A DNA stretch of 61,008 nt from Nemertoderma westbladi (Eukaryota; Animalia; Xenacoelomorpha), in NCBI GenBank assembly GCA_032718475.1, contig JAUCBJ010000465.1, forward strand, positions 1 through 61,008. The letters run 5' to 3'. Every line of letters starts with the position of its first letter. Within the stretch, counting starts at the first letter, position 1. The translations under genes and the position numbers were made by a program. Below the pieces are notes generated by a model. The model did not search any database, was not told the origin of the DNA, and saw only the letters and a list, made by a program, of their open reading frames with translations. Positions 23,129 through 59,780 of this stretch are shown here, in pieces.

Positions 23129-25424
23129 GTATACCGATTTGGTATACCAATATATTGTGCTACGACGTCCTGACGTAGCGGTTCTACGACGCAGCAGTGC
23201 TACGTGGAAATCATATAATGGGTTGTCTAAAGGTCTTGGGACCATATATCCCATTTTGGCACTTCTAGAGGGAAAATTGAAGAGTTATCAAAAAAGAAAG
23301 ACAAGCAAACGGTTGTTATTTGTTATTGTTATTGACTTAGACGTCAGTCTGTCAGTATACAATGATTCGAATACTGTACATTTGTGTCTGCTGTTGATAA
23401 CAATAATTTGTTCCTGTTTGACTACTGTACATGCAATTCATTATCTGCCATTTGTTGCTTTTTCTATCTTGTAATGTAATGTGTTTAAATTGTAGCTGGG
23501 ACCTGCCGGGGTCAAGGGTCATACATTATCGCATCATTGCGAAATTTTATTGTGTTAGTATTGTGTTAGTGTCAATAACATACTGTACAACATACTAAAA
23601 AATAATCCTACACCTATTTCATAGTTATAATTTATATTTTTAGTAGTAGAGGTCTATTACTTAACCATATGGTTGTATCTCTCTTGCTGGTTTTGTAAAT
23701 TATCTACTGTCATACTAAATATCTCGAAAACTAACTGCTCTACTCTTTTTTTGGAGGTTTCTACCCCAACTAAATCGATGATTGCGATTCGAATGGTGCT
23801 ATGTTTGAGTCTGTGGGATCAATAGAACCAATATTTTCGGCGAAATTTAAAATTATTCTGTTTGCGGCTACATATATTTCAATATGATCCATTTAATTAT
23901 TGTGTATTAAAGGCCAATAGCCCGATGAAAATTGTTAATTCAAGCTAAATTTACGTGTGGCTAAGTCAACACGAATAGTTCCCAAAAGGCACTTTGGCAT
24001 TTAATTGTAAATCATTATTAGTGATGATATTAACTGTACTACATTATACAGTACGCCTAAGTGTCTGAGTGTACATAGCATAGTAAGCATAGTTTAGTTC
24101 CCCATCTCGGCCTTAAATTAAATTAAAGCATACTACCTATAGCATTAGCTTGATTGAACATGCTTAAATATGAAATGAATTACACCGCGCAATTATTGTA
24201 GGTCATACTGTCGAGGCATTTAAGACAAGATTAATTTTACAGTTCTCAATGGTAATATAAAGTTCGATCGCGTAACCCAATTTCGAAGTTCAAACACCCC
24301 ACTAGACCTAGTCAGTCGTAAAGTACTAATTGCCTCGGTGTACCCACGAATCCGTGGGAGCACTTATACAACGGATCGTTACTTTGATACAATAGGTGGG
24401 ACGTAAAGTACAGTAGATATTGATGGCTGTAAACTGAAATTAGGGGGGGGGGGGGTATGTTGTAATATACGTGTAGACAGTTCCGTTTCACTACGTTGTA
24501 TGCAAGTATTCGTAATTATGACTTATTATGAATTAATAATGAAACATTTGTGAAAGGTCTAGGTATAGGGTAAGTATACTTATTACTCGTACTATTGAAT
24601 CGATATTGCTATACATTGATCTTAAATATATTTGTTATGAATGCTTGTGTTCGTGTTGGTAAATAATATTACAGTGTTGGATGTCATACACACTCAATAC
24701 GTTTGAACCGTTGTCGCCTGTAGGGCAATACTCGAAGTTAGCAACTCACCTATTATGGTGGTAAATAAAACGAGATGTTTCCTTTAAACAATGTTAATAC
24801 ATAATGAGCAACAACGATAATAACAGCAATAATAACAATAAATCAATGTTAACTATGTAAGTATGTAAGATAAGCATGTAAAAGGGTAAGTAAGTGAAAG
24901 TAAGGTAATAGTCTAGACCTCTTAAATCTTATGAGGTCTATTTACGGGGTTTGAGGGTAATAATATGAAGGTTACGCCTACAAAATGAACTAAATCTAAA
25001 CTATAAATACAATTGTCACAGAAGGACGGTCACTGGTAGTAGTAGCCAATGAGGACCCACAAACACGAAAGCAACACTACTCGCTATCTGTAAGCTGAGT
25101 GCAGACTTTCTGAGCCGACCAATAGGAGAAATAGGCAGACTAAATACAAATGTCAGATTTACCAGCACGAATAAGTAGTGGGGCTAGCCGTGTATCTGAA
25201 TAGCTATATTGCTGTACACAACACATATTATACAGTAACACTAGCGTTACATAGATTTTGGGGCTTGTGGAGCTGCATCAAAACATACCTACTGTATTTA
25301 ATGTAAATCTTTTATAAAAAAGTTTTTATAAAAAATTCCAGATTATAGTATGAAACTGTCAATACGGTAGGCCTATTACATTTGTATTATATACAATAAT
25401 AATGTCGCTCCATTCATTTAAATT

Positions 25425-27279
25425 TTTTTTTTATATAGGGGTGAATAATTAAATTCTAGAATATTAATTTTATAAATATATATCATTATAATTTAATTTA
25501 TATAGTAAATAACGAATGACTCATTGATAACATCACATAAATACAAACTCAGTTAGGTACAGTTCGTAGGTAATCGAATCCATTGATAAATCAATAGTTG
25601 GTAAGTTGGGGACTAAATTGGATATAGTGGAAGGCTGAGCTGGGGTCGGATGTAGTTGGCTCTAGAGGAGTAGGATCTCGTTGAGGTCTGCCTTGGCTGG
25701 TAGGGTACCAAGCACAGCGGTGGCGTTTCCCCGGACAATGGCCATCGACAACCTCTGGAAGAGAAATGTGGTCGCCCTTGGTTCGGCGGATTTTAGCGAG
25801 ATGCGGCGGCCGATCTCTCGAAGGATTTGTGTTCCTTCACTACCGATATCACCTAGGGTCTCGACAGCAATGGTGGTGAAGTGGTAGTTGTGCTGGAGCT
25901 CGGTATATTTTCTTAATTTTGCAGATTCGGCAGATGCGGCAGCGGCACCTGCTGTAGAGGAAGTGCCTGGAAGGTGGGACGCGGCCAGGGTGTCCCTGCA
26001 TGTGAAGTCCCACACGAGAGGTTTTCCTGTAGCCCATGGTGCAAGAGTCATTCCGTCCGGCACCTTACCATCGTGGGACAGACCTCGCGGCTCGAGGGTA
26101 GAAACAACTCCTGCAGAGGTTAGGGCACGATGGATTATATCATTGGCCTCTGCGTGGCGGGTGAATTTACCATAATTGTGGATACACAAGAGGCCATGGG
26201 TGGCCCATCTGTCTACTAGACCGCCACAACCACGGCAGTTATGCTCGACGCTGATAGGGGCTCCGAGACGCAGCGCTACACCTACTCGGAGCTGGTCGTC
26301 CTCGAGACGGAGACCAAGAGATGAGATAGGCATGGCATGGAGCCAGTCGCCTGCATGGTCTGCCACTGAAGCTAGAAGGCGTGCCTTGTGTGATGGGGAC
26401 TTCGCTCCATCAAGGATTTTCTTTGAGGCAGTAACATCCAATGGATTGCTCCAGGCTTTCTGGAATATGGGGTTGATAGGTACTTCGTAGTCTGTTGGAA
26501 GGGCTCTCAGGCCTTGGTCGAACCAGTGGTTGGGTGCTTCGATGATCGGTGGTGGAAGAAGGGATTGTAGTAGGGGACCGCATCCTGAGAACGAAGCCAA
26601 AAAGGCCGGTATTGAGATGTCCCTCGTACTGCTTACCCCAAGGCCACCAAGAGCGATGGGTAGAGAGGCTTGACGCCAAGTGATGTCATCCAGCTGGATA
26701 TTGAGTGCGATTTCCAGAGCTTTTTTGATGGTCTCATCGAAGATGTCAAGCTGTGGTGATGTGAAGCATGGAGCACATCTAAGTGTGTACATTAGCTTCG
26801 GGATTGCAAAACAGTGTCTCAGAAGGTAAAGGGCATCATGTGCAGAAAGTAGATGAAGACGGCTAGCGAAGGTAGATAGTTCAAGGTGTTTCTGCACCAA
26901 GACTGTTTCCAAGGCCTTATCACCAAGTGGTGCACCTAGAAGGATGGATTCTTCGAAATCAAATGGTTTAATGTCTGGGGTGATGGATTGAAATGTGGCG
27001 AGGGTGGATTCCTTCAAACTCTTAGGAAAGTCCTTGTGGAAGATGAGTTCGCATTTAGAGGGTTTGATCGATAGACCCAACTTAGCTGCTTCACTGATGA
27101 TGGTCTTCAAATTTTCAGCAACTGAAAGGGCGGACCCACCTAGGGAGCCATCGTCAAGAAACCAAACATTGAAGATACAGTTTAAAGAGTCCACAAACCC
27201 GTGGATGTCGGAGCTGAAGAAGAGGGAAGCCAAAGGATCACCCTGCTGGCTGCCATTGTCGGAGTTAATAATCTCCTTG
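25425..27279 (-). mobile_element. 5'-truncated CRE-clade (RLE-type) non-LTR retrotransposon
   Basis: RT motifs QQGDPL and WFLDDG, CCHC knuckle (CRGCG...HGL.C), RH, PDG, D-T--D and AE--K--KY restriction-like endonuclease motifs; 3' UTR and poly(A); TSD CCATTCATTTAAATT at 25410-25424 and 27280-27294. Confidence 0.9.
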
Positions 27280-27287
27280 CCATTCAT
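25662..27287 (-). CDS. Uninterrupted 541-aa partial RT + RLE endonuclease ORF of the CRE-like element (copy 1)
   Basis: ORF track; lacks the N-terminal RT motifs; ATG lies within the TSD. Confidence 0.7.
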   Translation of the reverse strand: MNGKEIINSDNGSQQGDPLASLFFSSDIHGFVDSLNCIFNVWFLDDGSLGGSALSVAENLKTIISEAAKLGLSIKPSKCELIFHKDFPKSLKESTLATFQSITPDIKPFDFEESILLGAPLGDKALETVLVQKHLELSTFASRLHLLSAHDALYLLRHCFAIPKLMYTLRCAPCFTSPQLDIFDETIKKALEIALNIQLDDITWRQASLPIALGGLGVSSTRDISIPAFLASFSGCGPLLQSLLPPPIIEAPNHWFDQGLRALPTDYEVPINPIFQKAWSNPLDVTASKKILDGAKSPSHKARLLASVADHAGDWLHAMPISSLGLRLEDDQLRVGVALRLGAPISVEHNCRGCGGLVDRWATHGLLCIHNYGKFTRHAEANDIIHRALTSAGVVSTLEPRGLSHDGKVPDGMTLAPWATGKPLVWDFTCRDTLAASHLPGTSSTAGAAAASAESAKLRKYTELQHNYHFTTIAVETLGDIGSEGTQILREIGRRISLKSAEPRATTFLFQRLSMAIVRGNATAVLGTLPAKADLNEILLL

Positions 27288-27574
27288 TTAAATTATGTTT
27301 ATTCCTTTATTATTACGTCACGTGAACGTGAAGTAAACAAAATTGCACCCTAACACCACGTATGAGTAATTTCAATGAAATGAAATGTAATATAAGTAGA
27401 TTTGAGAGTCAGGATCAGGGAAGGGGAACGGAAAGACAGGCTAGCTAATTAGCAGGGCTGGTAGACGCTAGTGCTATCCACCGTATTCCGCATGATGTGG
27501 GGGGCACTAATCAGACACAGACTCAGTCAATGAGACAGGGGGGGGGGGGGGGGGGACTGAACGCAAATCCCATC

Positions 27575-27742
27575 TTGGCGAATTAATATCCCGCCTCAAT
27601 GTTAAATTCTCAATTCATAGGGAAAGGAGCAGGAGCAGGAGCAGGTTACAGTGGCTCGTTATTTTAACCAAAACAATAAACTAAACACAATAGAACAGGT
27701 TACAGTTTTATTTTTGAGAATTATCAGCTGTTATTTGCGTCG
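27575..27742 (+). repeat. Dispersed non-coding repeat family (core CAGGTTACAGTGG...TAACCAAAACAATAAAC)
   Basis: Related copies at ~33705, ~41047, ~49097-49252 (inverted), ~54152, ~56628 and ~57841. Confidence 0.7.
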
Positions 27743-28859
27743 AATTTCCCCTGGAGAGGGATTAATTATTGCGTCGAAAGTCCCCCCTATCTGCAGTCAA
27801 TACGGCGAATGAATATTAATACTATGTTGAACTACTGTACAATAACTACAGTAAGTAATACAGTACTTTATCAATTAGCACTTATACAGTAAAGTGTTCT
27901 TAAATAAGGATAAAGTTCTTTAGGCCTACCCGGTGCCCGGATCTCAGCGAATAAAGAATTTCAACTAAATTCCAGAATGCCAAAGTGCCTTTGGGGAACT
28001 GTTAGAATCATTCTACAGTTCCCCAAAAGCACTCTGGCATTTACGCTGGTGGCTGTTTGCAATTATTTAGGTACCTGGAAAATGCCAAAATGCCAAAGTG
28101 CCTTTTGGGAACTAACTATTCCTGTGACTTAGCCACACGTCTAAATTTAAACTAAAACATCATGCAGACTGCAAATAATCGAAATTTTAAATGGGTAATT
28201 TTTTTTAAAGTTTTATAATATTATTAATATAATTATAATAATTTAATAATTTATAATTGTTAATTAAAAGACAATAGCTCATTCAAATATTAAAAAAAAA
28301 TTTTCTGAAATTACTATTGCGTGGTGTTCTGAAAAAAAAATTTGAGGTAGGTATTTTTTTTTTACTAAAAGTCGATTTAAACGCACTGTGATTTACATAC
28401 GATAACTATTTCATATGAGCACTTTATATTGCAGTAGGCTATTATTGTAGAATTTCAAGCTGGTTCCATGTTCTAGTGATAGGCATACTACTACAGTTGT
28501 ACAGTTGTAGGCCTACTAACTGAACTAATATTACTGTATTAACACAGTAACATGCCCAGCTGCCCAGATTTTAATCAGAATCAGAATCCCATTTCAATTT
28601 CAATGTCAATATTCCGACAGTCTGACAATCCTGCAGTCCGACTGTCCGACATCCGATGATGGATGACTGACAGACTGAATGATAAGCAACGTTAGTACGT
28701 CAGTACGTGGATTTCTACAGCTAAAAACGACAGAATCCAGCCAGCATCTGGCATACCGGTACCTTCTCAAAAAGACATAATCTGTAAACAGGCTTCGACT
28801 TTTACTATTACTGCCTATTGAATATTGACAAAAAGCGCGCCACACGGGCCCTGCAGCGG

Positions 28860-28950
28860 GTCACTACTCAGTCTCTAGACGACTTCAACTTAAACCTTCC
28901 CAACACCTACAACCTCCTGTTGGCCCCCAAATCGACAGTTTCCAGTATCG
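28860..28950 (+). other. Candidate 5' non-coding exon of zinc-finger gene copy 1 (copy 2 ends at 42422)
   Basis: CpG-richer segment ending TCG|GTGAGT at 28950; start position is approximate. Confidence 0.4.
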
Positions 28951-29559
28951 GTGAGTTACTATTATTTGTATTGTAAACATCGTTTTAGTCCGTATTGCCC
29001 CCAAACTGGTCAGAGTAATTGTTTATTTATAGTGACAGTTATGATGGTTCTGAGTTTAGTTTTTGTTTTTTAGGGTTTTTATCTGATTTAATTAAATTCA
29101 ATCTAGCCTGAAGCCTTTCTCACCAAATAACAAATATAATATACGAAGCCTATTTCCCAAACTCACCGAATTGCAAACAAAACTCCAGAATAGAAACATC
29201 CCATTTTTAGCTTTGTCAGAGAAATGGCTGGACTCTATTATCCAGAGGAAGAAATACAAATACAAGGGAATTCATTCTGCGTCGCACAAGTTATTGTGAT
29301 TACTCTGGATTCCCGAATAGACGGGGCGACACGGATATTATTTTTTTTAAAAAAATCCACCCACAATTCTCTTATTCCAGACACCCCGACTATTAAGTTT
29401 TTCTAAAAAATTTAGTACATTTTTTATTATGAGTAAATAAACGTTTATTCTCATAGATAAGGTAACCAGATAAGGTAACACATGGAACAAAATAGCAATA
29501 TTACATATTAATAATTACCTACTTAAAAAGAGAGACGGAAATTCGAATTCTGGATGGAC

Positions 29560-30300
29560 TATTTCCACGATTATTCACTTAATAATATTCATTTATTGAA
29601 TATTTCTTGTACCTCACAACAGAATGCACATAATTTAGGTAACTCCGGTAAATTACAATGAAACAGGTTATTTATGGATGTATAATTACTGAAACCAAAT
29701 TTACAGCGCAGGTCTTTAGTGTAATCACAGTGTAATAGCACGTGTTCTTCTTCCTGTACTACACCCAGCTCACATGAACATATGCGGTCGCTTGGCGTAC
29801 GTGACCACCTTCCTTTTTGCGCTACGTAGGTTGTGTGAGAATGTACGAAATCTCGTAAAAGCTATCCTCTGGTAATCGGATATGCACAAAGTGCTATTTG
29901 AGTAGATTTCGTTCGAGCATAATTGAAGGTTTATATTTTCACGGTACAATCTAAACTTTGTAGCCGTTGTCGAATTATTAACTACTTTCCACCTTAGTGC
30001 CTTTAACGAGTAGGCCTCCACATCTATATCGCAGGCAGTACTAAGTAACTGGAACATTTTTATGTTAGAATCCGATGTTAATTTAAATATTTGCTTGATG
30101 GGTAACGATTCATCTAATATTCTTGAATATGGTAACCCGCTTTCTAACAGGCATATATCATTCGGGGTAGTTATTCGTACACCTAATAGAGATTTTATTG
30201 CTTTCATATACAAAGTGTCTATAATCTTAAACTTCATATCGATAGTACATAAATCTATATATATCTATATTACATATCGGAATCGCTGTCTTATAAATAG
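29560..30300 (-). mobile_element. Degraded LINE 3' fragment (RTE-X-like C-terminus) in the zinc-finger intron
   Basis: KSLLGVRITTPNDICLLESG, TRFRTFSHNL, then frameshifted ICSC...QEEEHVLLHC zinc-binding motif. Confidence 0.7.
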
Positions 30301-30657
30301 GTCCTACCTATTGCGTCTATCACTTTAAAATATTCCGTTTTTCGAGACACTCCATAATCACATTAATCAGTGCTGCAATATTTTCTAAGACCCCTTTACA
30401 GGTTATAATATTTCAGTCAGTATCAGTAATTAATGGTGCTTATTTTATATTTTATGTTTTTTTAGTAATTTAAGTATCAAACCTCACACGTATTAATTTA
30501 CAATATCGAATCGAAAATCTTATTTATTTACATATATGAATTTAAAACTACAGTAATTAGCAAGTTCTATTGACTAATTATTGCATTAATTACTTCAATT
30601 ATTCTCGTTTCCAATATTCTCCATTATTAATCCACTCCACTCCATTATTTTCTCTAG

Positions 30658-31235
30658 GCGACCAATCTCAACCATTTCCTGATGATTCAGACATGCTCGC
30701 TTCAGACGATGACGTAACACCCGGAAGTATGAATAATCCCTTCGACCAACCTGGTCCCTCTGGGATTCAACCCCAGGACATTATAAAAGGAAGCCGCAGC
30801 AAAAAGAAACCCTTCGGTTGTGATACTTGTGATAAAGCGTTCGCATGGAACAGCAACCTAATTCAACACCAACGGGTCCACACTGGCGAGCGTCCTTACC
30901 AATGCGGCATCTGCTACGAACGTTTCTCTCGTCTAAGCCACCTAACCGTGCACAAGCGGAGCCACAGTGGGGAGAGACCGTATAACTGCAATGAGTGCCA
31001 GAAACGTTTCTCTCACCTAGGCAACCTAACCGTGCACAAGCGGAGCCACAGTGGGGAGAGACCGTATAACTGCAATGAGTGCCAGAAACGTTTCGCTCAA
31101 CTAAGCAACCTAACCAGGCACAAGAGGACGCATTCCGGAGAACGTCCGTCCGTACGTATAATTTTATATGGGCATACTACAGAAAACGCTTCAATATTTT
31201 TGAATGTAACGGGCAAATACCTCTCGAACTTTTGA
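30658..31235 (+). CDS. C2H2 zinc-finger exon, copy 1: four fingers, truncated at the duplication breakpoint
   Basis: TTTCTCTAG| acceptor at 30657, in-frame ATG at 30693, four CxxC...HxxxH fingers with TGERP/SGERP linkers; homology to copy 2 ends at ~31157. Either reads through to a stop at 31235 or splices at 31151. Confidence 0.85.
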
Positions 31236-31619
31236 CTCCAGATCAAATAATTTTTTTGCTAATGTTAGCATGCTCCGCGCCGCCCGACGAACGTGTTACT
31301 TATTTTATTTTGTTATTTATGTAAATGTTTTAAGCCGGTAGGCACCTAGTTATATTGTATCTTGTTATCAGATATATAGTGGCTGAAGTTGGTCGCATGT
31401 AAAAATTGACCTCCAGCGGAAATTGGTCGCAAATAACAGCTGAATACGGGCAAAAATTCAACTGTAACCATTGCTATTCACTCTGGTTTATCGTTTTGGT
31501 TAGAATAGCCTGCTACTGTATCCAGCTCATTTCCCTAAGTTGTTAATGTCAACGTTGGCGTTGATTGTATTTATTATAATTGTGGAACTTTGAAAAAAAA
31601 TTTGTTTATTTTCATTTAG

Positions 31620-34600
31620 GACGCCGCTCGTTTAGGAAACAAAAAGAAGAAACAAATGAAATTGAATGAAGAAAAATTAAAATCGCGAAGTTTGTCAGCC
31701 GAGAAAGTGCCGAATGGTAAGTTCAGTTGAGAGAAAAATACGTGGGCGTTGCGTTGTGAGGTTCACAGTTTAATCGTAATTTATATTATTTAAATTTTTA
31801 TATTATTCTTATTTAAAGTTAATTAAAATAAGCCAGCATATGCTGTGTGCATATATCCTTTGTGGGACCTTTGTACAGGACAATCCAAACAAGCTTAGCT
31901 TACGGGTTTATGTTATTTCAACCGCTGCGCTGGCTTGTTGCCCTCCTGCGGGAAACTGGATAACTGCTGAGTCACTCAAATTATATTTCAGATTTTTGAG
32001 AAACCACTTGTGTATCAAGTTTTGTTTAATTTCATCAAAGGGTGACAGACATACGACATTAGGCCTCAGACAGAAAGACATATCGACTGGAAGATATCGG
32101 TAACTGTACCTACCAATATGCTAAGCAGTTACTTCGTCGCTCGATATACAACAATAGAGCCGCTCAACAGCGGGATACTTACTGTAAGAATATCAGGGAT
32201 ACTTTCTGTAAAAATCTCAGAATACATTACACTAACTGACATACTGAATGACATACTGACTGATAATTATCTAGGTTAAGGCACTTCCTGCCAGGCGATT
32301 TTGATGAAATTTTGCAAGTACATTGCTTTGGTGGTTCATAATCGCGTTACAAAATTTCAGATCGATTCTATGTGTGGTATTCGATATATTTAGTTTTTTG
32401 ACATTGTTTTGTCGCGAAATTAAAAGCAATGGTAAAATAACAGCTGGTGTTCATGATGAAATATGGCTTAATATGTTATACACAGTCATTGTTAGCTTAT
32501 CCAATTCCGCTAACACAAACCCATAGAGTGAGCCATAAAGCAATATTGGAAGCACGAGGTTGATTACCAATCAACCTCGTGTCATCCCAGTAAACGGGGA
32601 CAATAGGCCCCAAAGGAGACACACACAATAAGGGTCAGGGGTTACTCCCCTGACAAGAGAGAGAATAGCTGGGGTGAACGGGAAACACACCAGGGAAGGT
32701 GAAGGGGCGAGAAGTGGGATATTAGCCAATGGGGGGACAGCATCGACTAGGTACACTAATGTGGCCAACCGTGCAGTATATTACCTGTTGGTGCTCCCCT
32801 ATTCAGTCAGTTATCTCAGTCGGTCAGTACAGTCAGGTAGTACGGTGACAGTTAGGACCGTCACCGCCGTCATCACATTACCGGTACCAGTGCAGCAGTA
32901 TTCAGTGCTATCTGCTATTGTACCTATACACTATATGTTATCTCAATTTATATCCTTAACAACAACGTCAGAACAACAACTCTTTTCATCCACACGGCGG
33001 GGACGCGTACGTAACCAACACCGGATAAACCGGGATCCTCTCGGATCCCGTCACAGTCATAGAAAAACGTGTTGGTTGCCAAGTTTTACTAGTAGGCTAT
33101 AAGGAAAGGCAATGTTTACTCACACATAAGCTGTGGGTTTCTAATGTATTACCCCATAAGATGATTGCTCTCCCAGTGCTTTGTAAGGGTATATCTACAA
33201 TAAGGAAACTAAATTGATTATTTGGCTCTATTCGTTGTTATTTAGTTGTTGTTTTATTTTTAATTTAGTTAATTTAGTTTTAAAATTGTTGATTTAGTTG
33301 TAGAAGAAATAGTAGAGGAAATGGAGGCTTCTTCTAAGGAAGCGGAGAGTGAGGCGGAAATGGAGGCTTCTTCTACGGAAGCGGAGAGTGAGGCGGAAAT
33401 GGAGGCTTCTTCTACGGAAGCGGAGAGTGAGGCGGAAATGGAGGCTTCTTCTACGGAAGCGGAGAGTGAGGCGGAAATGGAGGCTTCTTCTACGGAAGCG
33501 GAGAGTGAGGCGGAAATGGAAGGCGATATCAACCCGCTTCAAGATGTTAGTTATAGGCCTAATTCTAATAAAAATAAATAAATAATTATCTATATTAAAA
33601 TATATAACCCCCAACTCAGGCAACAACTATTACTATCTCGGCTATTGTGTTGCTGCCGTTCCCACACCGTACACCCCAATTTACGTTATTTATTTAAGGT
33701 AAGGAACAGGTTACTGTGGCACGCTATTCTAACCAAAACAATAAACTAAAGTCAATAGAACACGACCCCCTCCATAATCCATATCTGTAACAAATTATGA
33801 AGCGGTGATTGGTAACCTAATTCAATAACGATTTGTCTTTAATATTATTATCTTGATTTTTTTAATTGAATTAATTTTAATTATTGTGGGTTTTATCGGT
33901 TGTTACATCTACTACTCTACAGGAACTTATTGCGGCGGAGCGACAACGCAAAGCGGTTGAGGATGAGCGAGACGAGTTGGCGGAAGAGACGGCCGGGATA
34001 GCTAGTAACCGTGGCAACGCACTCGACGAGAAACGCCGCCGACACGAGTTTGAGAAACGCCGACTCAAGTCGAAAATACAACATTTGGAAAACGATCTGG
34101 AGGAGGAGCGATCATACGTATCGTGGCTCCAAGAAAAGTTAGAATGTTCAAATATATATTTCTATCTAATAATATTTGTCGCTATCAGTTATTGTTTAAG
34201 TTTAGGTAATCCTACATCAAACTTTGTGTTGCAGGTCGAACAAGTCGCAGCAGCAAGTAGATACGCTGACCACTGCCCTAGCAACCGAACGATCTATCAC
34301 GCAGAAGCAAGTAGATATGCTGACCACTGACCTAGCAACCGAACGATCTATCCAGCAGAAGCTTGACAACGACATACTCATGTTGGAACGACAGAATCGC
34401 GACCTCCAGCAGAAGCTGCAGAAGTCGCGAATGAGAACAACGATCCAGGGACTGGAGCAGAAGCTCAACCAGCAAGCTGATATGAACAAGGAGCAGGTAG
34501 GTGGAGGTGTACAACTCTTAAACACCTCCCAGTGGGTTGTCGATCACATAAACTGCAGCTGGTTTGGGTTATAAACACCCACAATCTCTCTGGTAGCACG

Positions 34601-35024
34601 ATTTATCAATGAATATACGTTAGAGGTTACAGCCCAAACAATTATAACTCTATTGGTTGCAACCCAGATGTGATCCCATTGGTTACTAAAATCCAACCCT
34701 GCTGACTTACATATTGTAGCGACAACTATTATACCTAACAACAGTTACACATACACAGTTTGTTGTTGTTCCATTAGATATCCTAGGTTACTGGATTACA
34801 ATTAATTTGTTGTTGATTAGGTTGATAAATACAACCACCGGCTGAAAGCGCAGAAGAGGCAGTTGGAAGAAACAGAGGATGAGGCAACGCGGCTTAAGAG
34901 AAAATGGCAGAGGAAGTTCGATGACGTTACCGAACAGAATGACAGGTTACAGAGAGAAGTTACAACTCTACGTAACAAAGCTGCAGACACCAGCGACGGT
35001 GGGGACACACCCGACGGTGACTAA
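31620..35024 (+). CDS. Motor-less non-muscle myosin II heavy-chain tail-like coiled-coil protein; exons 31620..31716 (internal ATG 31656), 33298..33545, 33923..34137, 34235..34496, 34821..35024
   Basis: GT-AG introns with matching phases (1,0,2,0) and no stops. ELIAAERQRKAVEDERDELAEE, EKRRLKSKIQHLENDLEEE, LERQNRDL, KEQVDKYNHRLKAQKRQLEETEDEA and REVTTLRNK are collinear with the C-terminal rod of MYH9/MYH10/zipper as I recall it. AATAAA at 35108-35113. Confidence 0.78.
32490..33055 (+). mobile_element. Solo LTR, 566 bp
   Basis: TGT...ACA termini, 5-bp TSD GTCAT (32485-32489, 33056-33060); lies in an intron of the myosin-tail gene. Confidence 0.85.
33316..33520 (+). repeat. Coding 39-bp tandem repeat x5 (MEASSTEAESEAE)
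   Basis: Unit ATGGAGGCTTCTTCTACGGAAGCGGAGAGTGAGGCGGAA, in frame within exon 33298..33545. Confidence 0.92.
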
Positions 35025-38000
35025 GATTAGTTGCCTAGCAACCAGACACACAAACTATTCCCGCACATGGCTGCTCTTATTCTGCTGAAGCTTCATTGGT
35101 TCTGGTTAATAAATTAATTGTTGTGCCTAAAAACCTGTTTTAAACAAATGACCCCACCCATACCAACCTGCTGTCTGTCCCATGTCTAGAATCGGTAGCT
35201 ATTTTTTAGTATTTAATAATGATATCAGTTTGATATTTAGTATTTAATGATATCAGTATAAGTCTGCCAAATGGGGGTATTAATTATATATCGTGTGCAA
35301 ATTAATTAGTTTGGTATTAATTAATAATTGTTATTGGGGTTCTTTATTAATTAATTTGTGCTGGTGTGTCTATTACTTGTGCTTGCGAATTTATGCTGAG
35401 TTTGTAATTAATTAATCCGCTTTCTCATCTAATTATCTAACAATCTTTTAGATGGGCCATAATTTTTGGTTTCTATATTTTAATATTATTATTGTAGGCC
35501 TACAATATTTGCCATAACTTAGCTCAACCATTATTTGATTTCCTGAAACTTAAATTATAACCATTCCTATATTGCATGAAGCTTGTTATAGTGATAGTAT
35601 ATATTTAATTAATTAAACCATCCTAATATCATATTCCACAAATAGAATGAAAATCCAGAAATATCCTAGTGTGGTGCCAGTGTTGTTGTAGGTTTAGAAG
35701 TCTATTGATTTTCGTCTCCTTTGGTATGAATCACATACGTAAAGGTTTTGGTTAATAGCTAAAGAAATTATTGTTAAAAACCAATAATTAGCGACCCAAT
35801 CATTCAATTAAGAGTCCCTATTAGAGCTTGTGACGTCACATCATTATGATTTTTTATAAATAGTTTTCATTAATAACATTCACTGGATGTAAAATGTTAT
35901 TTGTATTGATTTCGGTTTATGATTTAATGATAAATTATCGACTATATTGTGGAATTTGTTTGGTTTCAATTATTTGACGCGATTTTAGGAAATTCAGCGT
36001 TTGAATCATTCCAAGATAGACTATTTATCCGTATTAATAATTGTATTGGCGTAGAAACTTGTGCGGAATTATTTACGCCCCCTAGTGACGCGGTAGCCCA
36101 ACGATTTACTATGCCCAGCTCCATCTAGTGGTATTTTGTTATATTGCCGAATTCTTTGGGTGTGTTTGTGTCCGACGCTAGGCGGATTTTAGCTTAGGTA
36201 TATCAAATAATTTCCACGTACATTGTCTTGTCTCTTTTGTCAGCTATATATGTTATTATAAAATAATTATATTATTATATTTACTATTATATTATTTACA
36301 GTGATTTGAGTATTATAATATTGGATACAGAATGACGTCACTTTAACTTTTTGTTATGTTTATTGAAGGCGCACATCACAATTGGAAAATAAAAGGTTGT
36401 GGAAATATACATTCTGAAAATCGCGAATTCATACAACAAGGGAGACAACCCCCCCCCCCCCCCCCCCCCCATTTTTGCGGTAGCTAATATAATTGTGCTA
36501 CAGCCACGTTTTATTTTCTACCTCTAACAACTATTATAGTCCAAAATTGGGGTCTGGGTTTTACCTGTAAATAAATGAGAAATTTTAAACAGCCACAGGG
36601 AATAAATCTGTCAAAGACAAATTTCTGTGGTAGATTTATGGCTGAAATATAACGACAGGTATAGCTGTACTGTATGTGTCGTCTTCCTTGTGAGGTTATT
36701 TGAAAGGTCGTTACGATAACACTATTTGTAACTAAGTGATGCGTACTTAATTTAGGGCACGTGTTGTAACACTAAGTTACCAATTTAAATGACAATCAAC
36801 TTGTCCTAATTTCAATTATCACAGAAATGTAGGGGATGAGACGTTCGATAGATTTAAAGATATTACTGTATGTTAAGTACCTCGCGAAATGTAACTGATA
36901 AAATAATAAATAGGTTTCGGTGTCCGTTTCACACGACGATGCGAACTCGATCATGTAATCGTGCAACGGGAAAATATATAGTTATTAATTTGTCAGAAGT
37001 TAATTGCTCCACAGACACATACAGATTGCCTCGATTTATAAATCGCACGGATATACGGGGCCTTACTCCTTATATGGTATTACGCAGACTGCCAATTAAT
37101 GAAATTCAAATAAACTATAGAAATTGATGGTTGCACGTATTTACTCAATGGCATTCGAATCTAGGTGTACCTATAATTCCTTGCATAGATCACGAATATC
37201 ATACACACAATGTTCACAAATTTAAACGAAATACCAAATACGTTGTACCAAATATTAAATGTCACACCGCACTTACGTACTAAAGAAGAGTATCCGTTAC
37301 TGTTGATGCCCCACTAGTTCATTCAAGCCGATTGCCTCGATTTACAAGTCGCTCAGATAGACGAGGCCTTACTCCGTGCAAGTTTGTAGGTTTTACACAC
37401 GAAGAGTAACAGGATACTTCAACCTTATCAATAAGGCGTCAACAAAGTAGTACTTGGCCCGTAATATAAAGTAAAACGATCAATCAGAAAACTACGTAGT
37501 TTCAGTCCTACACGTATTAATTCCAGTTTATTCACGAACAAAATCACTAACGTAGGTAAGAACGTCCGAGCGTGCACTCTCATAGAACCTACCTTAAGCT
37601 AGTTGGTTGTTTGATGTTGCAAAGTACCGTACTTTATTTCATCAAAGTAACAAGAGAACGACTATTACTGTCGAGGCATTTAAGACAAGATTAATTTTAC
37701 AGTTCTCAATGGTAATATAAAGTTCGATCGCGTAACCCAATTTCGAAGTTCAAACACCCCACTAGACCTAGTCAGTCGTAAAGTACTAATTGCCTCGGTG
37801 TACCCACGAATCCGTGGGAGCACTTATACAACGGATCGTTACTTTGATACAATAGGTGGGACGTAAAGTACAGTAGATATTGATGGCTGTAAACTGAAAT
37901 TAGGGGGGGATATGTTGTAATATACGTGTAGACAGTTCCGTTTCACTACGTTGTATGCAAGTATTCGTAATTATGACTTATTATGAATTAATAATGAAAC

Positions 38001-38896
38001 ATTTGTGAAAGGTCTAGGTATAGGGTAAGTATACTTATTACTCGTACTATTGAATCGATATTGCTATACATTGATCTTAAATATATTTGTTATGAATGCT
38101 TGTGTTCGTGTTGGTAAATAATATTACAGTGTTGGATGTCATACACACTCAATACGTTTGAACCGTTGTCGCCTGTAGGGCAATACTCGAAGTTAGCAAC
38201 TCACCTATTATGGTGGTAAATAAAACGAGATGTTTCCTTTAAACAATGTTAATACATAATGAGCAACAACGATAATAACAGCAATAATAACAATAAATCA
38301 ATGTTAACTATGTAAGTATGTAAGATAAGCATGTAAAAGGTAAGTAAGTGAAAGTAAGTGAAAGTAAGTAAGTAAGGTAATAGTCTAGACCTCTTAGATC
38401 TTATGAGGTCTATTTACGGGGTTTGAGGGTAATAATATGAAGGTTACGCCTACAAAATGAACTAAATCTAAACTATAAATACAATTGTCACAGAAGGACG
38501 GCCACTGGTAGTAGTAGCCAATGAGGACCCACAAACACGAAAGCAACACTACTCGCTATCTGTAAGCTGAGTGCAGACTTTCTGAGCCGACCAATAGGAG
38601 AAATAGGCAGACTAAATACAAATATCAGATTTACCAGCACGAATAAGTAGTGGGGCTAGCCGTGTATCTGAATAGCTATATTGCTGTACACAACACATAT
38701 TATACAGTAACACTAGCGTTACATAGATTTTGGGGCTTGTGGAGCTGCATCAAAACATACCTACTGTATTTAATGTAAATCTTTTATAAAAAAGTTTTTA
38801 TAAAAAATTCCAGATTATAGTATGAAACTGTCAATACGGTAGGCCTATTACATTTGTATTATATACAATAATAATGTCGCTCCATTCATTTAAATT

Positions 38897-40751
38897 TTTT
38901 TTTTATATAGGGGTGAATAATTAAATTCTAGAATATTAATTTTATAAATATATATCATTATAATTTAATTTATATAGTAAATAACGAATGACTCATTGAT
39001 AACATCACATAAATACAAACTCAGTTAGGTACAGTTCGTAGGTAATCGAATCCATTGATAAATCAATAGTTGGTAAGTTGGGGACTAAATTGGATTTAGT
39101 GGAAGGCTGAGCTGGGGTCGGATGTAGTTGGCTCTAGAGGAGTAGGATCTCGTTGAGGTCTGCCTTGGCTGGTAGGGTACCAAGCACAGCGGTGGCGTTT
39201 CCCCGGACAATGGCCATCGACAACCTCTGGAAGAGAAATGTGGTCGCCCTTGGTTCGGCGGATTTTAGCGAGATGCGGCGGCCGATCTCTCGAAGGATTT
39301 GTGTTCCTTCGCTACCGATATCACCTAGGGTCTCGACAGCAATGGTGGTGAAGTGGTAGTTGTGCTGGAGCTCGGTATATTTTCTTAATTTTGCAGATTC
39401 GGCAGATGCGGCAGCGGCACCTGCTGTAGAGGAAGTGCCTGGAAGGTGGGACGCGGCCAGGGTGTCCCTGCATGTGAAGTCCCACACGAGAGGTTTTCCT
39501 GTGGCCCATGGTGCAAGAGTCATTCCGTCCGGCACCTTACCATCGTGGGACAGACCTCGCGGCTCGAGGGTAGAAACAACTCCTGCAGAGGTTAGGGCAC
39601 GATGGATTATATCATTGGCCTCTGCGTGGCGGGTGAATTTCCCATAATTGTGGATACACGAGAGGCCATGGGTGGCCCATCTGTCTACTAGACCGCCACA
39701 ACCACGGCAGTTATGCTCGACGCTGATAGGGGCTCCGAGACGCAGCGCTACACCTACTCGGAGCTGGTCGTCCTCGAGACGGAGACCAAGAGATGAGATA
39801 GGCATGGCATGGAGCCAGTCGCCTGCATGGTCTGCCACTGAAGCTAGAAGGCGTGCCTTGTGTGATGGGGACTTCGCTCCATCAAGGATTTTCTTTGAGG
39901 CAGTAACATCCAATGGATTGCTCCAGGCTTTCTGGAATATGGGGTTGATAGGTACTTCGTAGTCTGTTGGAAGGGCTCTCAGGCCTTGGTCGAACCAGTG
40001 GTTGGGTGCTTCGATGATCGGTGGTGGAAGAAGGGATTGTAGTAGGGGACCGCATCCTGAGAACGAAGCCAAAAAGGCCGGTATTGAGATGTCCCTCGTA
40101 CTGCTTACCCCAAGGCCACCAAGAGCGATGGGTAGAGAGGCTTGACGCCAAGTGATGTCATCCAGCTGGATATTGAGTGCGATTTCCAGAGCTTTTTTGA
40201 TGGTCTCATCGAAGATGTCAAGCTGTGGTGATGTGAAGCATGGAGCACATCTAAGTGTGTACATTAGCTTCGGGATTGCAAAACAGTGTCTCAGAAGGTA
40301 AAGGGCATCATGTGCAGAAAGTAGATGAAGACGGCTAGCGAAGGTAGATAGTTCAAGGTGTTTCTGCACCAAGACTGTTTCCAAGGCCTTATCACCAAGT
40401 GGTGCACCTAGAAGGATGGATTCTTCGAAATCAAATGGTTTAATGTCTGGGGTGATGGATTGAAATGTGGCGAGGGTGGATTCCTTCAAACTCTTAGGAA
40501 AGTCCTTGTGGAAGATGAGTTCGCATTTAGAGGGTTTGATCGATAGACCCAACTTAGCTGCTTCACTGATGATGGTCTTCAAATTTTCAGCAACTGAAAG
40601 GGCGGACCCACCTAGGGAGCCATCGTCAAGAAACCAAACATTGAAGATACAGTTTAAAGAGTCCACAAACCCGTGGATGTCGGAGCTGAAGAAGAGGGAA
40701 GCCAAAGGATCACCCTGCTGGCTGCCATTGTCGGAGTTAATAATCTCCTTG
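38897..40751 (-). mobile_element. 5'-truncated CRE-clade retrotransposon (duplicated copy; ORF 39134..40759)
   Basis: Same truncation point, TSD and flanks as 25425-27279, so it was copied with the segment rather than inserted independently. Confidence 0.9.
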
Positions 40752-43031
40752 CCATTCATTTAAATTATGTTTATTCCTTTATTATTACGTCACGTGAACG
40801 TGAAGTAAACAAAATTGCACCCTAACACCACGTATGAGTAATTTCAATGAAATGAAATGTAATATAAGTAGATTTGAGAGTCAGGATCAGGGAAGGGGAA
40901 CGGAAAGACAGGCTAGCTAATTAGCAGGGCTGGTAGACGCTAGTGCTATCCACCGTATTCCGCATGATGTGGGGGGCACTAATCAGACACAGACTCAGTC
41001 AATGAGACAGGGGGGGGGGGGGGGGGGACTGAACGCAAATCCCATCTTGGCGAATTAATATCCCGCCTCAATGTTAAATTCTCAATTCATAGGGAAAGGA
41101 GCAGGAGCAGGAGCAGGTTACAGTGGCTCGTTATTTTAACCAAAACAATAAACTAAACACAATAGAACAGGTTACAGTTTTATTTTTGAGAATTATCAGC
41201 TGTTATTTGCGTCGAATTTCCCCTGGAGAGGGATTAATTATTGCGTCGAAAGTCCCCCCTATCTGCAGTCAATACGGCGAATGAATATTAATACTATGTT
41301 GAACTACTGTACAATAACTACAGTAAGTAATACAGTACTTTATCAATTAGCACTTATACAGTAAAGTGTTCTTAAATAAGGATAAAGTTCTTTAGGCCTA
41401 CCCGGTGCCCGGATCTCAGCGAATAAAGAATTTCAACTAAATTCCAGAATGCCAAAGTGCCTTTGGGGAACTGTTAGAATCATTCTACAGTTCCCCAAAA
41501 GCACTCTGGCATTTACGCTGGTGGCTGTTTGCAATTATTTAGGTACCTGGAAAATGCCAAAATGCCAAAGTGCCTTTTGGGAACTAACTATTCCTGTGAC
41601 TTAGCCACACGTCTAAATTTAAACTAAAACATCATGCAGACTGCAAATAATCGAAATTTTAAATGGGTAATTTTTTTTAAAGTTTTATAATATTATTAAT
41701 ATAATTATAATAATTTAATAATTTATAATTGTTAATTAAAAGACAATAGCTCATTCAAATATTAAAAAAAAATTTTCTGAAATTACTATTGCGTGGTGTT
41801 CTGAAAAAAAAATTTGAGGTAGGTATTTTTTTTTTACTAAAAGTCGATTTAAACGCACTGTGATTTACATACGATAACTATTTCATATGAGCACTTTATA
41901 TTGCAGTAGGCTATTATTGTAGAATTTCAAGCTGGTTCCATGTTCTAGTGATAGGCATACTACTACAGTTGTACAGTTGTAGGCCTACTAACTGAACTAA
42001 TATTACTGTATTAACACAGTAACATGCCCAGCTGCCCAGATTTTAATCAGAATCAGAATCCCATTTCAATTTCAATGTCAATATTCCGACAGTCTGACAA
42101 TCCTGCAGTCCGACTGTCCGACATCCGATGATGGATGACTGACAGACTGAATGATAAGCAACGTTAGTACGTCAGTACGTGGATTTCTACAGCTAAAAAC
42201 GACAGAATCCAGCCAGCATCTGGCATACCGGTACCTTCTCAAAAAGACATAATCTGTAAACAGGCTTCGACTTTTACTATTACTGCCTATTGAATATTGA
42301 CAAAAAGCGCGCCACACGGGCCCTGCAGCGGGTCACTACTCAGTCTCTAGACGACTTCAACTTAAACCTTCCCAACACCTACAACCTCCTGTTGGCCCCC
42401 AAATCGACAGTTTCCAGTATCGGTGAGTTACTATTATTTGTATTGTAAACATCGTTTTAGTCCGTATTGCCCCCAAACTGGTCAGAGTAATTGTTTATTT
42501 ATAGTGACAGTTATGATGGTTCTGAGTTTAGTTTTTGTTTTTTAGGGTTTTTATCTGATTTAATTAAATTCAATCTAGCCTGAAGCCTTTCTCACCAAAT
42601 AACAAATATAATATACGAAGCCTATTTCCCAAACTCACCGAATTGCAAACAAAACTCCAGAATAGAAACATCCCATTTTTAGCTTTGTCAGAGAAATGGC
42701 TGGACTCTATTATCCAGAGGAAGAAATACAAATACAAGGGAATTCATTCTGCGTCGCACAAGTTATTGTGATTACTCTGGATTCCCGAATAGACGGGGCG
42801 ACACGGATATTATTTTTTTTAAAAAAATCCACCCACAATTCTCTTATTCCAGACACCCCGACTATTAAGTTTTTCTAAAAAATTTAGTACATTTTTTATT
42901 ATGAGTAAATAAACGTTTATTCTCATAGATAAGGTAACCAGATAAGGTAACACATGGAACAAAATAGCAATATTACATATTAATAATTACCTACTTAAAA
43001 AGAGAGACGGAAATTCGAATTCTGGATGGAC

Positions 43032-43772
43032 TATTTCCACGATTATTCACTTAATAATATTCATTTATTGAATATTTCTTGTACCTCACAACAGAATGCA
43101 CATAATTTAGGTAACTCCGGTAAATTACAATGAAACAGGTTATTTATGGATGTATAATTACTGAAACCAAATTTACAGCGCAGGTCTTTAGTGTAATCAC
43201 AGTGTAATAGCACGTGTTCTTCTTCCTGTACTACACCCAGCTCACATGAACATATGCGGTCGCTTGGCGTACGTGACCACCTTCCTTTTTGCGCTACGTA
43301 GGTTGTGTGAGAATGTACGAAATCTCGTAAAAGCTATCCTCTGGTAATCGGATATGCACAAAGTGCTATTTGAGTAGATTTCGTTCGAGCATAATTGAGG
43401 GTTTATATTTTCACGGTACAATCTAAACTTTGTAGCCGTTGTCGAATTATTAACTACTTTCCACCTTAGTGCCTTTAACGAGTAGGCCTCCACATCTATA
43501 TCGCAGGCAGTACTAAGTAACTGGAACATTTTTATGTTAGAATCCGATGTTAATTTAAATATTTGCTTGATGGGTAACGATTCATCTAATATTCTTGAAT
43601 ATGGTAACCCGCTTTCTAACAGGCATATATCATTCGGGGTAGTTATTCGTACACCTAATAGAGATTTTATTGCTTTCATATACAAAGTGTCTATAATCTT
43701 AAACTTCATATCGATAGTACATAAATCTATATATATCTATATTACATATCGGAATCGCTGTCTTATAAATAG
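43032..43772 (-). mobile_element. Degraded RTE-X-like LINE fragment (duplicated copy)
   Basis: ORF 43242..43709 is almost identical to 29770..30237. Confidence 0.7.
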
Positions 43773-44130
43773 GTCCTACCTATTGCGTCTATCACTTTAA
43801 AATATTCCGTTTTTCCGAGACACTCCATAATCACATTAATCAGTGCTGCAATATTTTCTAAGACCCCTTTACAGGTTATAATATTTCAGTCAGTATCAGT
43901 AATTAATGGTGCTTATTTTATATTTTATGTTTTTTTAGTAATTTAAGTATCAAACCTCACACGTATTAATTTACAATGTCGAATCGAAAATCTTATTTAT
44001 TTACATATATGAATTTAAAACTACAGTAATTAGCAAGTTCTATTGACTAATTATTGCATTAATTACTTCAATTATTCTCGTTTCCAATATTCTCCATTAT
44101 TAATCCACTCCACTCCATTATTTTCTCTAG

Positions 44131-44792
44131 GCGACCAATCTCAACCATCACCTGATGATTCAGACATGCTCGCTTCAGACGATGACGTAACACCCGGAAG
44201 TATGAATAATCCCTTCGACCAACCTGGTCCCTCTGGGATTCAACCCCAGGACATTATAAAAGGAAGCCGCAGCAAAAAGAAACCCTTCGGTTGTGATACT
44301 TGTGATAAAGCGTTCGCATGGAACAGCAACCTAATTCAACACCAACGGGTCCACACTGGCGAGCGTCCTTACCAATGCGGCATCTGCTACGAACGTTTCT
44401 CTCGTCTAAGCCACCTAACCGTGCACAAGCGGAGCCACAGTGGGGAGAGACCGTATAACTGCAATGAGTGCCAGAAACGTTTCCAACAACTAGGCCACCT
44501 AACCAAGCACAAGAGGACGCATTCCGGAGAACGTCCGTACGTGTGCGACACGTGTGGGAAGGAATTTACGGAGAGCTGCAATCTAATGCGCCACAAAAGA
44601 ATTCACACGAAAGATCGACCGTACGTGTGCGAGACGTGCGGGAAGGAATTTACGCAGAGCAGCAATCTACAAACTCATAAGAGATCACATACAGGGGAAC
44701 GACCGTTTAGCTGCGATACATGCGGGAAATGTTTCCTCCACCGACATCATGTAAAGGGCCACAAATGTATCCGCAGCGGGGAGACTCTGTAA
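44131..44792 (+). CDS. C2H2 zinc-finger protein, copy 2: five canonical fingers plus one degenerate finger
   Basis: Acceptor at 44130, in-frame ATG at 44166, TGERP-type linkers, stop at 44792, frameshifted relic of a further finger (NCNVCKKRFS) just after the stop, AATAAA near 44878. Confidence 0.88.
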
Positions 44793-45174
44793 CTGTAATG
44801 TTTGTAAGAAACGTTTCTCAACTTCCATGTATATTGGTAGATATAAGTGTTGTATGAATAATATAATATCATAATCCAATAAATGTCATTTAATTTTAAT
44901 TATTAATCTTCCAACATTTAAGACAAGTCGTACAACACCGTGTAATAATAATAACTTCAATACAGCAATAATACATAAATCACAATTCTAGACCTAACAG
45001 TAGACACCATAGCTCCCTGGTTGCAGTTTAAACTAGTAAACTATATATTAAGACGTTAGTTGTAGATTGAACTGCTACGTGCGCCTTTTGTTATAATGAT
45101 TAATAAAGGTTGTCTAGGGACTGGCCTAGCGGCCCGATAAGGAGCCGATATTGTATTTCATAAAAACTGTCAAT

Positions 45175-48900: not shown

Positions 48901-50048
48901 ATGATCAGACCACCCTGAAAACATACAGTAGCTGTTAACACTGTAACATGCCAAGCCAAACAGCCAAACGCCAATACTGATAAACAACAACACTCAGACA
49001 CTGGGCAGCTGGGAGGTATCAGAGATGGTTGGGGAGAACTACCGGTACTATTATTTATTTATTACTTCTTTAAAAAAAGGGGGGGGGGGGAAACTGGACG
49101 CAAATAACAGATGATTACTCTCAAAAATAAAACTGTAACCTGTTCTATTGTGTTAGTTTATTTTTTTGGTTAAAATAATGTGCCACTGTAACCTGCTCCT
49201 TTCCATAAATTGAGAATTTAACAATGAGGCTGGATATTAATTTTCGCCAAGGCGACAAACTGACAAAATTGTTTGAAAGAATGAGTCCGTCAGGTTTCAT
49301 TGTCATATTAGTTCAGACAGTCCCATACTGCCATAAAAGCATAACGCAAACCATAACCCCTTCTGCTATCTGGCTATGTGATTTTTTTGTGCGCCGAACG
49401 CGACGCGGCGCGGACAAAAATGTGCGCCTGCGCAGTCGGAAACAGTGCAAAATCCGCGTGCGCAGCAGAAAAACTGCGCGAGATTGGCCCGCGAAGCAGA
49501 AATTCTGCACGAGATTGGCGCGCACAGCAGAAATACTGCGCGAAATCTCCTACCACCTAGACCTGCCTGCCTACTGGTCGAAGCACACCCAGACACCAAG
49601 TAAGAGGCTTATTACTGTATTATCTCATATCTGTATTACTGTATTGTCATTACCCTGTTTGCTGTTACCGGTAGTCGGCAGACTGCCAGGCAGGGGTAGG
49701 CGTAGGCCTACTGGCCTACTTACTGACTTGTGCTGTAGTCGTGTAGTGCAAGTCTGAGCCGCGCTATCAATTTTCTGAGCCTGCCTGCCTGCAGGCCTGT
49801 GCGGTGCCGCGCTCTCAATTTTCTGCGCCTGCTCCAAATTCTGGAAAAAATTGTGCGCCGAACACGTTCGGCATAAGCCTACATGCCCTACTTAGCAGAA
49901 TGGCCACAACCCGATAACCACCTGACTGCCTGTGACCACCAGCTGACCAGACTGCCAGAGCTGCAGAGACCACCCGCACCCACTGACTGACTGACGCTGA
50001 CCCAGCCACATGGCTGCCTCTGCCTGGCTGCCTGGAGCCTGGACCACT

Positions 50049-58479: not shown

Positions 58480-59780
58480 CCCTTAATTAGCTCGATAGCT
58501 CGATTATTTATATAAACTCATATCTAAATCGCAACATGGGTTCCTAAAGAAACGGTCTACCTGTACTCAATTATTGGAATGTACAACTGATTGGTGCAAT
58601 TTATTAGATAGTCGACAGAGCACGGACCACGGACACAATTTATATTGATTTTGCGAAAGCTTTTGATTCTGTTGTACATACAGACATCTGAAATTATTAT
58701 CTAAATTATCGGCATATGGTATATCTGGAGATTTATTATTGTGGTTATCGGCGTTTTTATCTGATCGTAGCCAACGTGTTGTTGTTGGAAATAGTTTTTG
58801 CGATGTCTGCTATGTACTATCTGGTACCCCTCAAGCTGTCAAGGTAGCGTACTTGGCCCTATATTGTTAGTGTTATTTATTAATGACCTACCTAATATAA
58901 TCGGTAATAGTGTATCATGCAAATTGTTCGCCGACGATGTAAAGCTGTATGCGCGCTCGTCCGATAATTTGCAACTCGCTGAAGCTATATCTGCTTTGGA
59001 AAAGTGGGCTGACTGGCTGATACATGGCAACTCAAAATTGCTGCTCATAAGTGCACCGTGCTTTACATCGGTTCGGCAGACCGAAGTGATACGCAGTACA
59101 TGCTGACATGTTAGGTGGTAAATTTTTAAAGAATGACACTTCTTGTAGAGACCTGGGTATTACAATGTGTAGTTCTCTTAATTTCGATGTTTATTGTCGT
59201 GAACAAGCTGCCAAGGCCCTAAAAATGACAAATTTGATTTTCAAGTGCTTTTTAACTTCGAATCGTTCTGCATTAATTACGGCTTTTAAATCTTATGTGC
59301 GTCCCTTATTAGAGTACTGTACGCCTATATGGTCTCCTTTTCATTTAGGTTGTATAGACTTACTTGAGTGGGTACAGAGATATTTTACGCGTCGCCTTTT
59401 TAAACGTTGTAATTTAGATTGTACAGTAAGCTATTTGAATCGAATTAACGTATTACAACTTCAACCCCTGGAAGTGCGCCGCATAATTTTTGACCTCAAG
59501 ATGACCTTCGCTCTTTCGAACAACGAAGTCGACCTAAACTTCGCTGACTTCCTTACCTTGGCCCCTAGGGGTGGGTTGAGAGGTCACGACCGTAAACTGT
59601 TTCATAAACAGTCGCGCTTGCAGATGTGCAAAAATAATTTTTCCCATAGAGTGGTGCCCATTTGGATGGAACTCGCTTCCAGCTGAAGTTGTAAATTGCC
59701 GTAATAAACTGTTATTTTCTCTAAGACTCAAAGAAATTAACCTACTTTCTTTTTGTAAGTTTAACCGGGATTTAGTGTAA
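58480..59780 (+). mobile_element. 5'-truncated, frameshifted CR1-clade LINE
   Basis: SQHGFLKKRST, YIDFAKAFDSV, QGSVLGP, LFADDVKLY, YVRPLLEYCTPIWSP, VQRYFTR, LRGHDRKL across ORFs 58798..59106 and 59108..59686. Confidence 0.92.

Follow-up and report, generated by a model that had tools for sequence, protein, structure and literature searches.

A candidate zinc-finger/myosin II rod chimera at a duplication breakpoint in Nemertoderma westbladi

Described chimeras and the Nemertoderma locus

Young chimeric genes formed at the DNA level include Sdic and jingwei of Drosophila. A possible further case lies in the genome of Nemertoderma westbladi (assembly GCA_032718475.1, contig JAUCBJ010000465.1), in a stretch of 61,008 nucleotides (nt), the window, to which this analysis was limited: coding parts of two separate parent genes, an array of C2H2 zinc fingers and a fragment of myosin II rod, meet at the edge of a duplicated block and can be read in one frame. 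Like the Drosophila genes, the candidate draws on two parents, involves duplication breakpoints in a tandem setting and has splice sites that were recruited or shifted in phase; unlike them, its joined transcript and selection upon it remain predicted. The reading that we favor, at a probability of about 0.45, is that a member of a zinc-finger family has gained a coiled-coil oligomerization tail by way of a spliced chimera, working like the leukemia fusion CBFb-SMMHC.

In CBFb-SMMHC (CBFB-MYH11, inv(16) leukemia), an assembly-competence domain drives self-dimerization and the tail binds Sin3a/HDAC8 (excerpt of PMC5323231). Both there and here a transcription-factor part is followed by a C-terminal myosin II rod, and the last exon of our model (exon F) covers the equivalent region. 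The leukemia fusion arises by somatic rearrangement, whereas a genomic duplication is involved here; CBFb is a RUNX1 cofactor, whereas the 5′ partner here is a C2H2 array and not a CBFb domain; and the rod here is of non-muscle type, remodeled by insertions and deletions (indels) and by an acidic expansion. The comparison is therefore best taken as one of possible working, not of membership.

Finger families offer another parallel. In DUF3669, a finger family gained its oligomerizer from LINE-1 ORF1p (excerpt of bioRxiv 2025.03.01.640934), and the KRAB, SCAN, BTB, FiNZ and DUF3669 families resemble the present one in being young and expanded, with changing contact residues and, if our reading holds, an oligomerizing module from an unrelated gene. 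They differ in that no known effector is found here, and that the gained module would be C-terminal, multi-exon and derived from a cytoskeletal motor gene. A homologue search with the N-terminus of the finger protein (residues 1–45) found none, there was no Pfam match to an N-terminal effector of KRAB, SCAN, BTB, ZAD or FiNZ type, and atlas matches reached only 0.76–0.77. No zinc-finger/myosin-tail gene was described among the titles and abstract starts listed from the open-access literature.

The break and its two parents

Positions 24206–31157 (copy 1, + strand) duplicate 37666–44542 (copy 2) over about 6.9 kilobases (kb). The numbering implies no direction of copying, and “parent linker” below means the linker of the intact copy 2. 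Up to 31010 the alignment spans 6,823 columns, with 13 mismatches (0.19% divergence) and 7 gap openings. Copy 1 comprises a retroelement remnant, a promoter region, a spliced non-coding first exon (28720–28950, +; 5′ end approximate, no ATG, donor CG/GTGAGT), an intron and a truncated zinc-finger exon. Copy 2 (37666–44883, +) is an intact paralogue, with an open reading frame (ORF) at 44166–44792 encoding 208 amino acids (aa) and six C2H2 fingers, a stop at 44792 and AATAAA at 44878; copy 1 has lost this 3′ end and its poly(A) signal. Both blocks also carry a reverse transcriptase (RT)-like ORF of 541 aa on the minus strand (25662–27287 and 39134–40759), whose RVT_1 match is weak and below cut-off.

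The zinc-finger exon of copy 1 (30658–31151, +; ATG at 30693) encodes four complete fingers (Pfam zf-C2H2 79 bits, cut-off 25.2), all four of the C-x2-C-x12-H-x3-H form with every ligand and canonical linkers, as in tandem Kruppel-type proteins; the break falls directly after a linker, so that all four are intact. The third is an 84-base-pair (bp) unit with its front from finger 3 and its back from finger 2. The fourth agrees with finger 3 of copy 2 at all 57 bases outside the helix, and departs from it at 6 of the 27 within. In contigs of two sequencing runs, X4 and X5, all nine variable places listed for finger 4 lie in codons -2, -1, +2, +3 and +6 (P 1.3e-5 for nine of nine inside the 27-base helix, only differences away from contig ends being tabulated). 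Variation is thus focused on recognition-helix codons, as expected of a Kruppel-type family; in young finger families under positive selection, change is focused on base-contacting residues (excerpt of PMC10547256). Because finger 4 differs from its neighbor at helix bases only, the junction-side fingers 3 and 4 possibly derive from an older paralogue. The 150 bases leading up to the break would then have a history distinct from that of the preceding 6.8 kb, and the age of the junction may exceed what the near-identity of the blocks implies. The original prediction of a “newborn” gene holds only for those 6.8 kb of 5′ sequence, with their 13 mismatches, and not for fingers 3–4, which depart from the neighbor at contact codons alone, or for the rod, whose in-frame indels also point to a longer history.

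Two further observations concern the fingers at large. They belong to a large family whose backbones are homogeneous and whose contact codons are hypervariable (31095–31118, 30641–30950). Summed contig depth at the 5′ end of the finger exon is 1634 and 2731 in the two DNA runs, against 41 and 62 in a promoter-side bin, and is very high in X4.

At the break itself (31145–31159, +), TCCG stands twice at 31145–31152, followed by five more parent bases before homology stops at 31157. The resulting donor, TCC/GTACGTAT at 31152, is in phase 0 from ATG 30693, matches the U1-complementary GTAAGTAT at seven of eight positions and forms 7 of 11 U1 pairs. The 4-bp duplication, the 7/8 match and phase 0 had been foreseen, but the duplication had been credited with creating the donor: the linker of copy 2 already carries TCC/GTACGTGT, in phase 2 and with 6 of 11 pairs, and the duplication shifted this latent site to phase 0. 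A Helitron or an excision footprint is a conceivable, speculative source of the doubled TCCG. The other five donors of the exon model form 6–8 of 11 pairs, a range that includes the 31151 donor. GT-anchored sites matching at least 7/8 occur at 0.53 per kb in the window, and the chance that such a site falls in the right phase in the interval from the last finger to the read-through stop is about 0.015–0.018; since the hexamer is present in the parent linker, what is truly coincidental is the shift of phase, with a chance of about 1 in 3. Six phase-0 donor candidates (at least 7/11 pairs, at least 40 open codons) lie between the stop of the upstream gene and 31620, and the 31151 donor is both the nearest to 31620 and the one with the longest open frame having an ATG. 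That upstream gene (448 aa) ends in a stop of its own at 20931, which rules it out as 5′ partner of the rod. Left unspliced, the finger frame reads on through 31152–31235 (+) to a stop, for a 180-aa product, with a weaker in-frame donor after 31205 (5/11). Neither AATAAA nor ATTAAA occurs between 30658 and 31676, so that a transcript would have no canonical end before the next exon.

The next acceptor AG ends at 31619, 468 nt from the donor. As anticipated, the frame then continues without stops: joining 30693–31151, 31620–31716, 33298–33545, 33923–34137, 34235–34496 and 34821–35024 gives exactly 494 aa and a single stop at the end, with AATAAA 84 nt beyond it (35108–35113, +). Net charge is +10 over the first 153 aa (the fingers) and -31 over an acidic spacer, which is followed by 226 aa of interrupted coiled coil. 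A cluster of three AATAAA and one ATTAAA (33567–33599, +) just inside the intron after exon C overlaps the in-frame stop at 33581 of exon C read-through, making a 279-aa isoform of fingers plus acidic sequence possible.

A remodeled myosin II rod

The second and third exons, B and C, had been interpreted as a basic patch and acidic repeats, modules separate from the fingers and the myosin tail. Both match a single myosin contig (the parent contig, from X4, depth 1482.6) at 31662–31707 and 33314–33349, and are therefore better seen as remodeled rod; neither an independent nuclear localization module in the first nor foreign sequence in the second survives this match. Exon B (31620–31716, +) is a rod remnant with an in-frame ATG at 31656 and a 12-nt in-frame deletion, its last 9 nt and donor falling outside the parent contig. 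Exon C (33298–33545, +), whose first 16 nt are missing from that contig, is a rod piece in which a 39-bp unit has expanded to 5.2 copies (33317–33520), close to the five predicted; the first unit reads SKEAE and four read STEAE. Loose ends of the parent contig around the first piece read EKKQRKFDQH before and ERCQSDVRQK after. At the second piece, ends of X5 and X4 contigs give RELDDVSRQR and KARSLEGDI, the latter running into EGDINPLQD of the window directly before exon D; the other ends we take to be myosin II rod.

The last three exons, all on the + strand, follow the end of a conventional rod: exon D (33923–34137) corresponds to myosin-10 residues 1695–1755, with a 24-bp duplication; exon E (34235–34496) to 1762–1828, with 54 bp duplicated, 6 aa lacking and a further stretch of about 39 aa probably deleted; and exon F (34821–35024) to 1873–1928, 3 aa shorter, with the assembly-competence region, a 14-aa tail and the stop. 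Pfam Myosin_tail_1 matches them at E 5e-7, 1e-8 and 2e-13, the last alone above the curated cut-off, and the 226 aa match the rod ends of myosin-10, -9 and -11. The nearest library proteins were seven myosin II rod fragments at 43–53% identity, with no finger-rod protein among them; homologue searches passed 0 of 68 candidates for exon E and 0 of 154 for exon D. On this sequence evidence, the whole of the sequence 3′ of the break is a single rearranged fragment of a non-muscle myosin II rod, and the introns kept in it indicate a fragment copied at the DNA level. It resembles the myosin-9/-10 class in the rod ends of exons D–F, and differs in lacking motor head, neck and most of the rod, and in an interrupted register and charge pattern.

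What could such a tail do? Exon F retains the region of assembly competence (E 3.7e-9 against myosin-10 1873–1928, three residues shorter), which in myosin IIB spans 1875–1903 (excerpt of PMC2204051). According to the same source, this region alone is insufficient, and the positively charged stretch 1747–1932 is needed for efficient rod self-assembly. Inside that stretch the fragment carries changes of +18, -6, about -39 and -3 aa, and it consists of rod pieces only, with neither a motor head nor a full-length rod. Because indels interrupt this charged C-terminal stretch, ordered filaments are doubtful: regular or bipolar myosin filaments are unlikely, and dimers or small oligomers more likely. 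Of the product first proposed, a DNA-binding protein that dimerizes or forms filaments, a finger-rod chimera is possible and supported by the sequence, and its dimerization is plausible, while the filaments do not fare well.

Two side observations belong with the rod. A pseudoscorpion record (P0007) combines retrotransposon-like sequence with a myosin II rod piece and shows a tandem duplication of the same segment as exon E; it may be a gene-calling fusion, and suggests that this segment duplicates easily in frame. A dispersed short repeat family (31411–31542, 33692–33762, 27637–27756, 49089–49212, 54146–54289, 57834–57882) has two copies, in opposite orientation, within the introns of the rod gene.

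Transcription, frame and rival explanations

Contigs from six sequencing runs bear on the use of these parts; none is on record as RNA, X1 and X2 being DNA and X4 recorded as “DNA?”. We infer that X4 and X5 behave like RNA, with depth peaks in exon bins, spliced ends, and little or no cover in several intron bins. Depth peaks at exon 1 in both. In X5, three contigs have a loose end before 30657 matching the 3′ end of exon 1 in 10 of 11 letters, and an X4 contig links exon 1 to the finger exon, so the zinc-finger family makes use of this exon structure; the 30658 acceptor, identical in copy 1 and the paralogue, is used by contigs of the family. The joints 31151–31620 and 31716–33298 are absent from all six joints found in 31060–33355 (X4, X5) and from the 15 of 37 joints listed, an absence counted neither for nor against the junction because X4 and X5 contigs are filtered and the individuals may lack the allele. 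X4 gives no cover over 31620–31661 and 33298–33313, and its depth on exons B and C is exactly that of the parent contig plus an array contig. The latter (depth 90.7) loops on the 39-bp array, which the parent contig does not contain; some array-bearing copy is therefore present in this RNA-like run. Over 31714–32220, window-identical contigs of X1 and X2 reach depths of 415.8 and 112.8, against 45.9 and 32.1 at 28600–28890 (3.5–9x), a weak hint of a multi-copy rod-fragment cassette, contig depth not being copy number.

Under the favored reading, the duplicated promoter would transcribe through the break, transcription running on because the parent's 3′ end and poly(A) signal are gone. The re-phased linker donor would then be spliced to 31620, leading into exon B and the 494-aa protein, possibly nuclear; its fingers would bind DNA, its myosin coiled coil would dimerize it, and the acidic spacer would hold the two apart. 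The rod might thereby supply an oligomerization or cofactor surface otherwise missing in a finger family with short N-termini.

The reading frame of the rod is relevant here. Its internal indels are all multiples of three, four at the DNA level and up to seven in total: a loss of 12 nt in exon B and a gain of 153 nt in exon C relative to the parent contig, tandem duplications of +24 nt (exon D) and +54 nt (exon E), the -6 aa change seen against all four alignable homologues, and, in the coordinates of myosin-10, changes of about -39 and -3 aa. The naive probability that all are in frame is 0.012 for four and 0.0005 for seven. In addition, the donor at 31716 and the acceptor at 33298, bridging the gap 31707–33314, are both outside the parent contig yet phase-matched; five of seven nearby AGs share the phase of that acceptor.

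Several points weigh against the spliced chimera. In-frame indels are favored in repetitive coiled-coil DNA; with an in-frame bias of 0.5 each, the probability rises to 0.06 (four) or 0.008 (seven), and for three of the seven, distant myosins are the only reference. The 82 bases that match the parent show no listed difference, so that stops are barely expected; the probability of meeting none is 0.37–0.08 at 2–5% divergence, and a stop-free frame is weak evidence. The exon model chooses frame-keeping splice sites, as did the original prediction, and it was the open frame that drew attention to the locus. None of the three exon-side bases of the donor (TCC) pairs with U1; TCC/GTACGT is present in the intact paralogue, whose frame continues through it, and expressed-looking paralogue contigs likewise continue through the linker (loose ends 31149–31153). 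The array contig may derive from another copy, in a run recorded only as “DNA?”. The two 54-bp units differ at four codons, all four non-synonymous, which fits relaxed selection.

Much of this would also fit a non-functional juxtaposition, a somewhat unlikely outcome in our estimation, in which a truncated finger duplicate lies beside a young, decaying rod fragment and read-through RNA stopping at 31235 is degraded or makes the 180-aa protein. With 0.19% divergence in the 5′ block, selection has had no time to become visible, the donor is poor on its exon side and latent in the parent, few stops are expected, the repeat units change non-synonymously, and the region is rich in tandem expansions. 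Decay does not lead one to expect that every one of the four to seven internal indels is in frame, that two non-parental splice sites are phase-matched, that the 39-bp array recurs in X4, or that the stop is followed by AATAAA. A different possibility, rather improbable, is that the rod fragment is a gene of its own, encoding a headless myosin-tail protein with the fingers as bystanders, and fed by exon 1 skipping the fingers, from a promoter of its own, or from a 5′ exon that other copies retain. Exon 1 spliced to 31620 would have its first ATG at 31656, in frame for 329 aa, and this ATG, which replaces an AGG of the parent contig, could account for an open rod independently of the fingers; the deep DNA contigs over 31714–32220 hint weakly at further copies. 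That ATG has C at -3, however, family contigs use the 30658 acceptor, which copy 1 and the paralogue have in common, and the phase-restoring 4-bp duplication would be left unexplained. Lastly, near-identical 6.9-kb copies in a multi-copy family could invite an assembly mis-join, but copies 1 and 2 have differing flanks on both sides, the junction is marked by a 4-bp duplication of its own and by distinctive finger codons, and X1 and X2 show depth in all 30 bins of 28600–33300, which makes a mis-join very improbable.

A broader version of the spliced-chimera reading, which we also hold to be somewhat unlikely, is that a fast-diversifying animal finger family recruited a non-muscle myosin II tail as its module for oligomerization or repression and so founded a small finger-rod family in the germline, possibly in several copies, of which the member seen here has had its 5′ end recently copied or overwritten.

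The rest of the window is intron-rich animal DNA with numerous tandem arrays and retroelement remnants. An unrelated gene of five exons (16093–20931, +; 448 aa open) has a predicted membrane-spanning stretch near its end, and its largest exon gave no Pfam match. Within it, a 50-bp array of about 33 copies (18246–19912), whose unit is an exon 3′ end of that gene plus a GTAAGT donor, yields many repeated donors of changing phase. Broken LINE-type RT remnants lie at 10997–13269 (+; RVT_1 E 1e-14) and 58795–59686 (+; judged by eye), and a large inverted repeat of 162-bp units at 13498–14258.

How non-vertebrate tandem zinc-finger families gain effector or oligomerization domains is largely an open question, and this locus shows, base by base, the two parents, the break between them and the mutation that fixed the phase. 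Should the junction prove unused, a finger family with hypervariable contacts beside a frame-preserving rod fragment is still of interest. If the broader reading is true, the finger-rod family would be a natural, selected counterpart of the leukemia fusion CBFb-SMMHC, and a tolerated germline form would show that the architecture of a human oncoprotein, a transcription factor joined to a myosin rod, can be co-opted.

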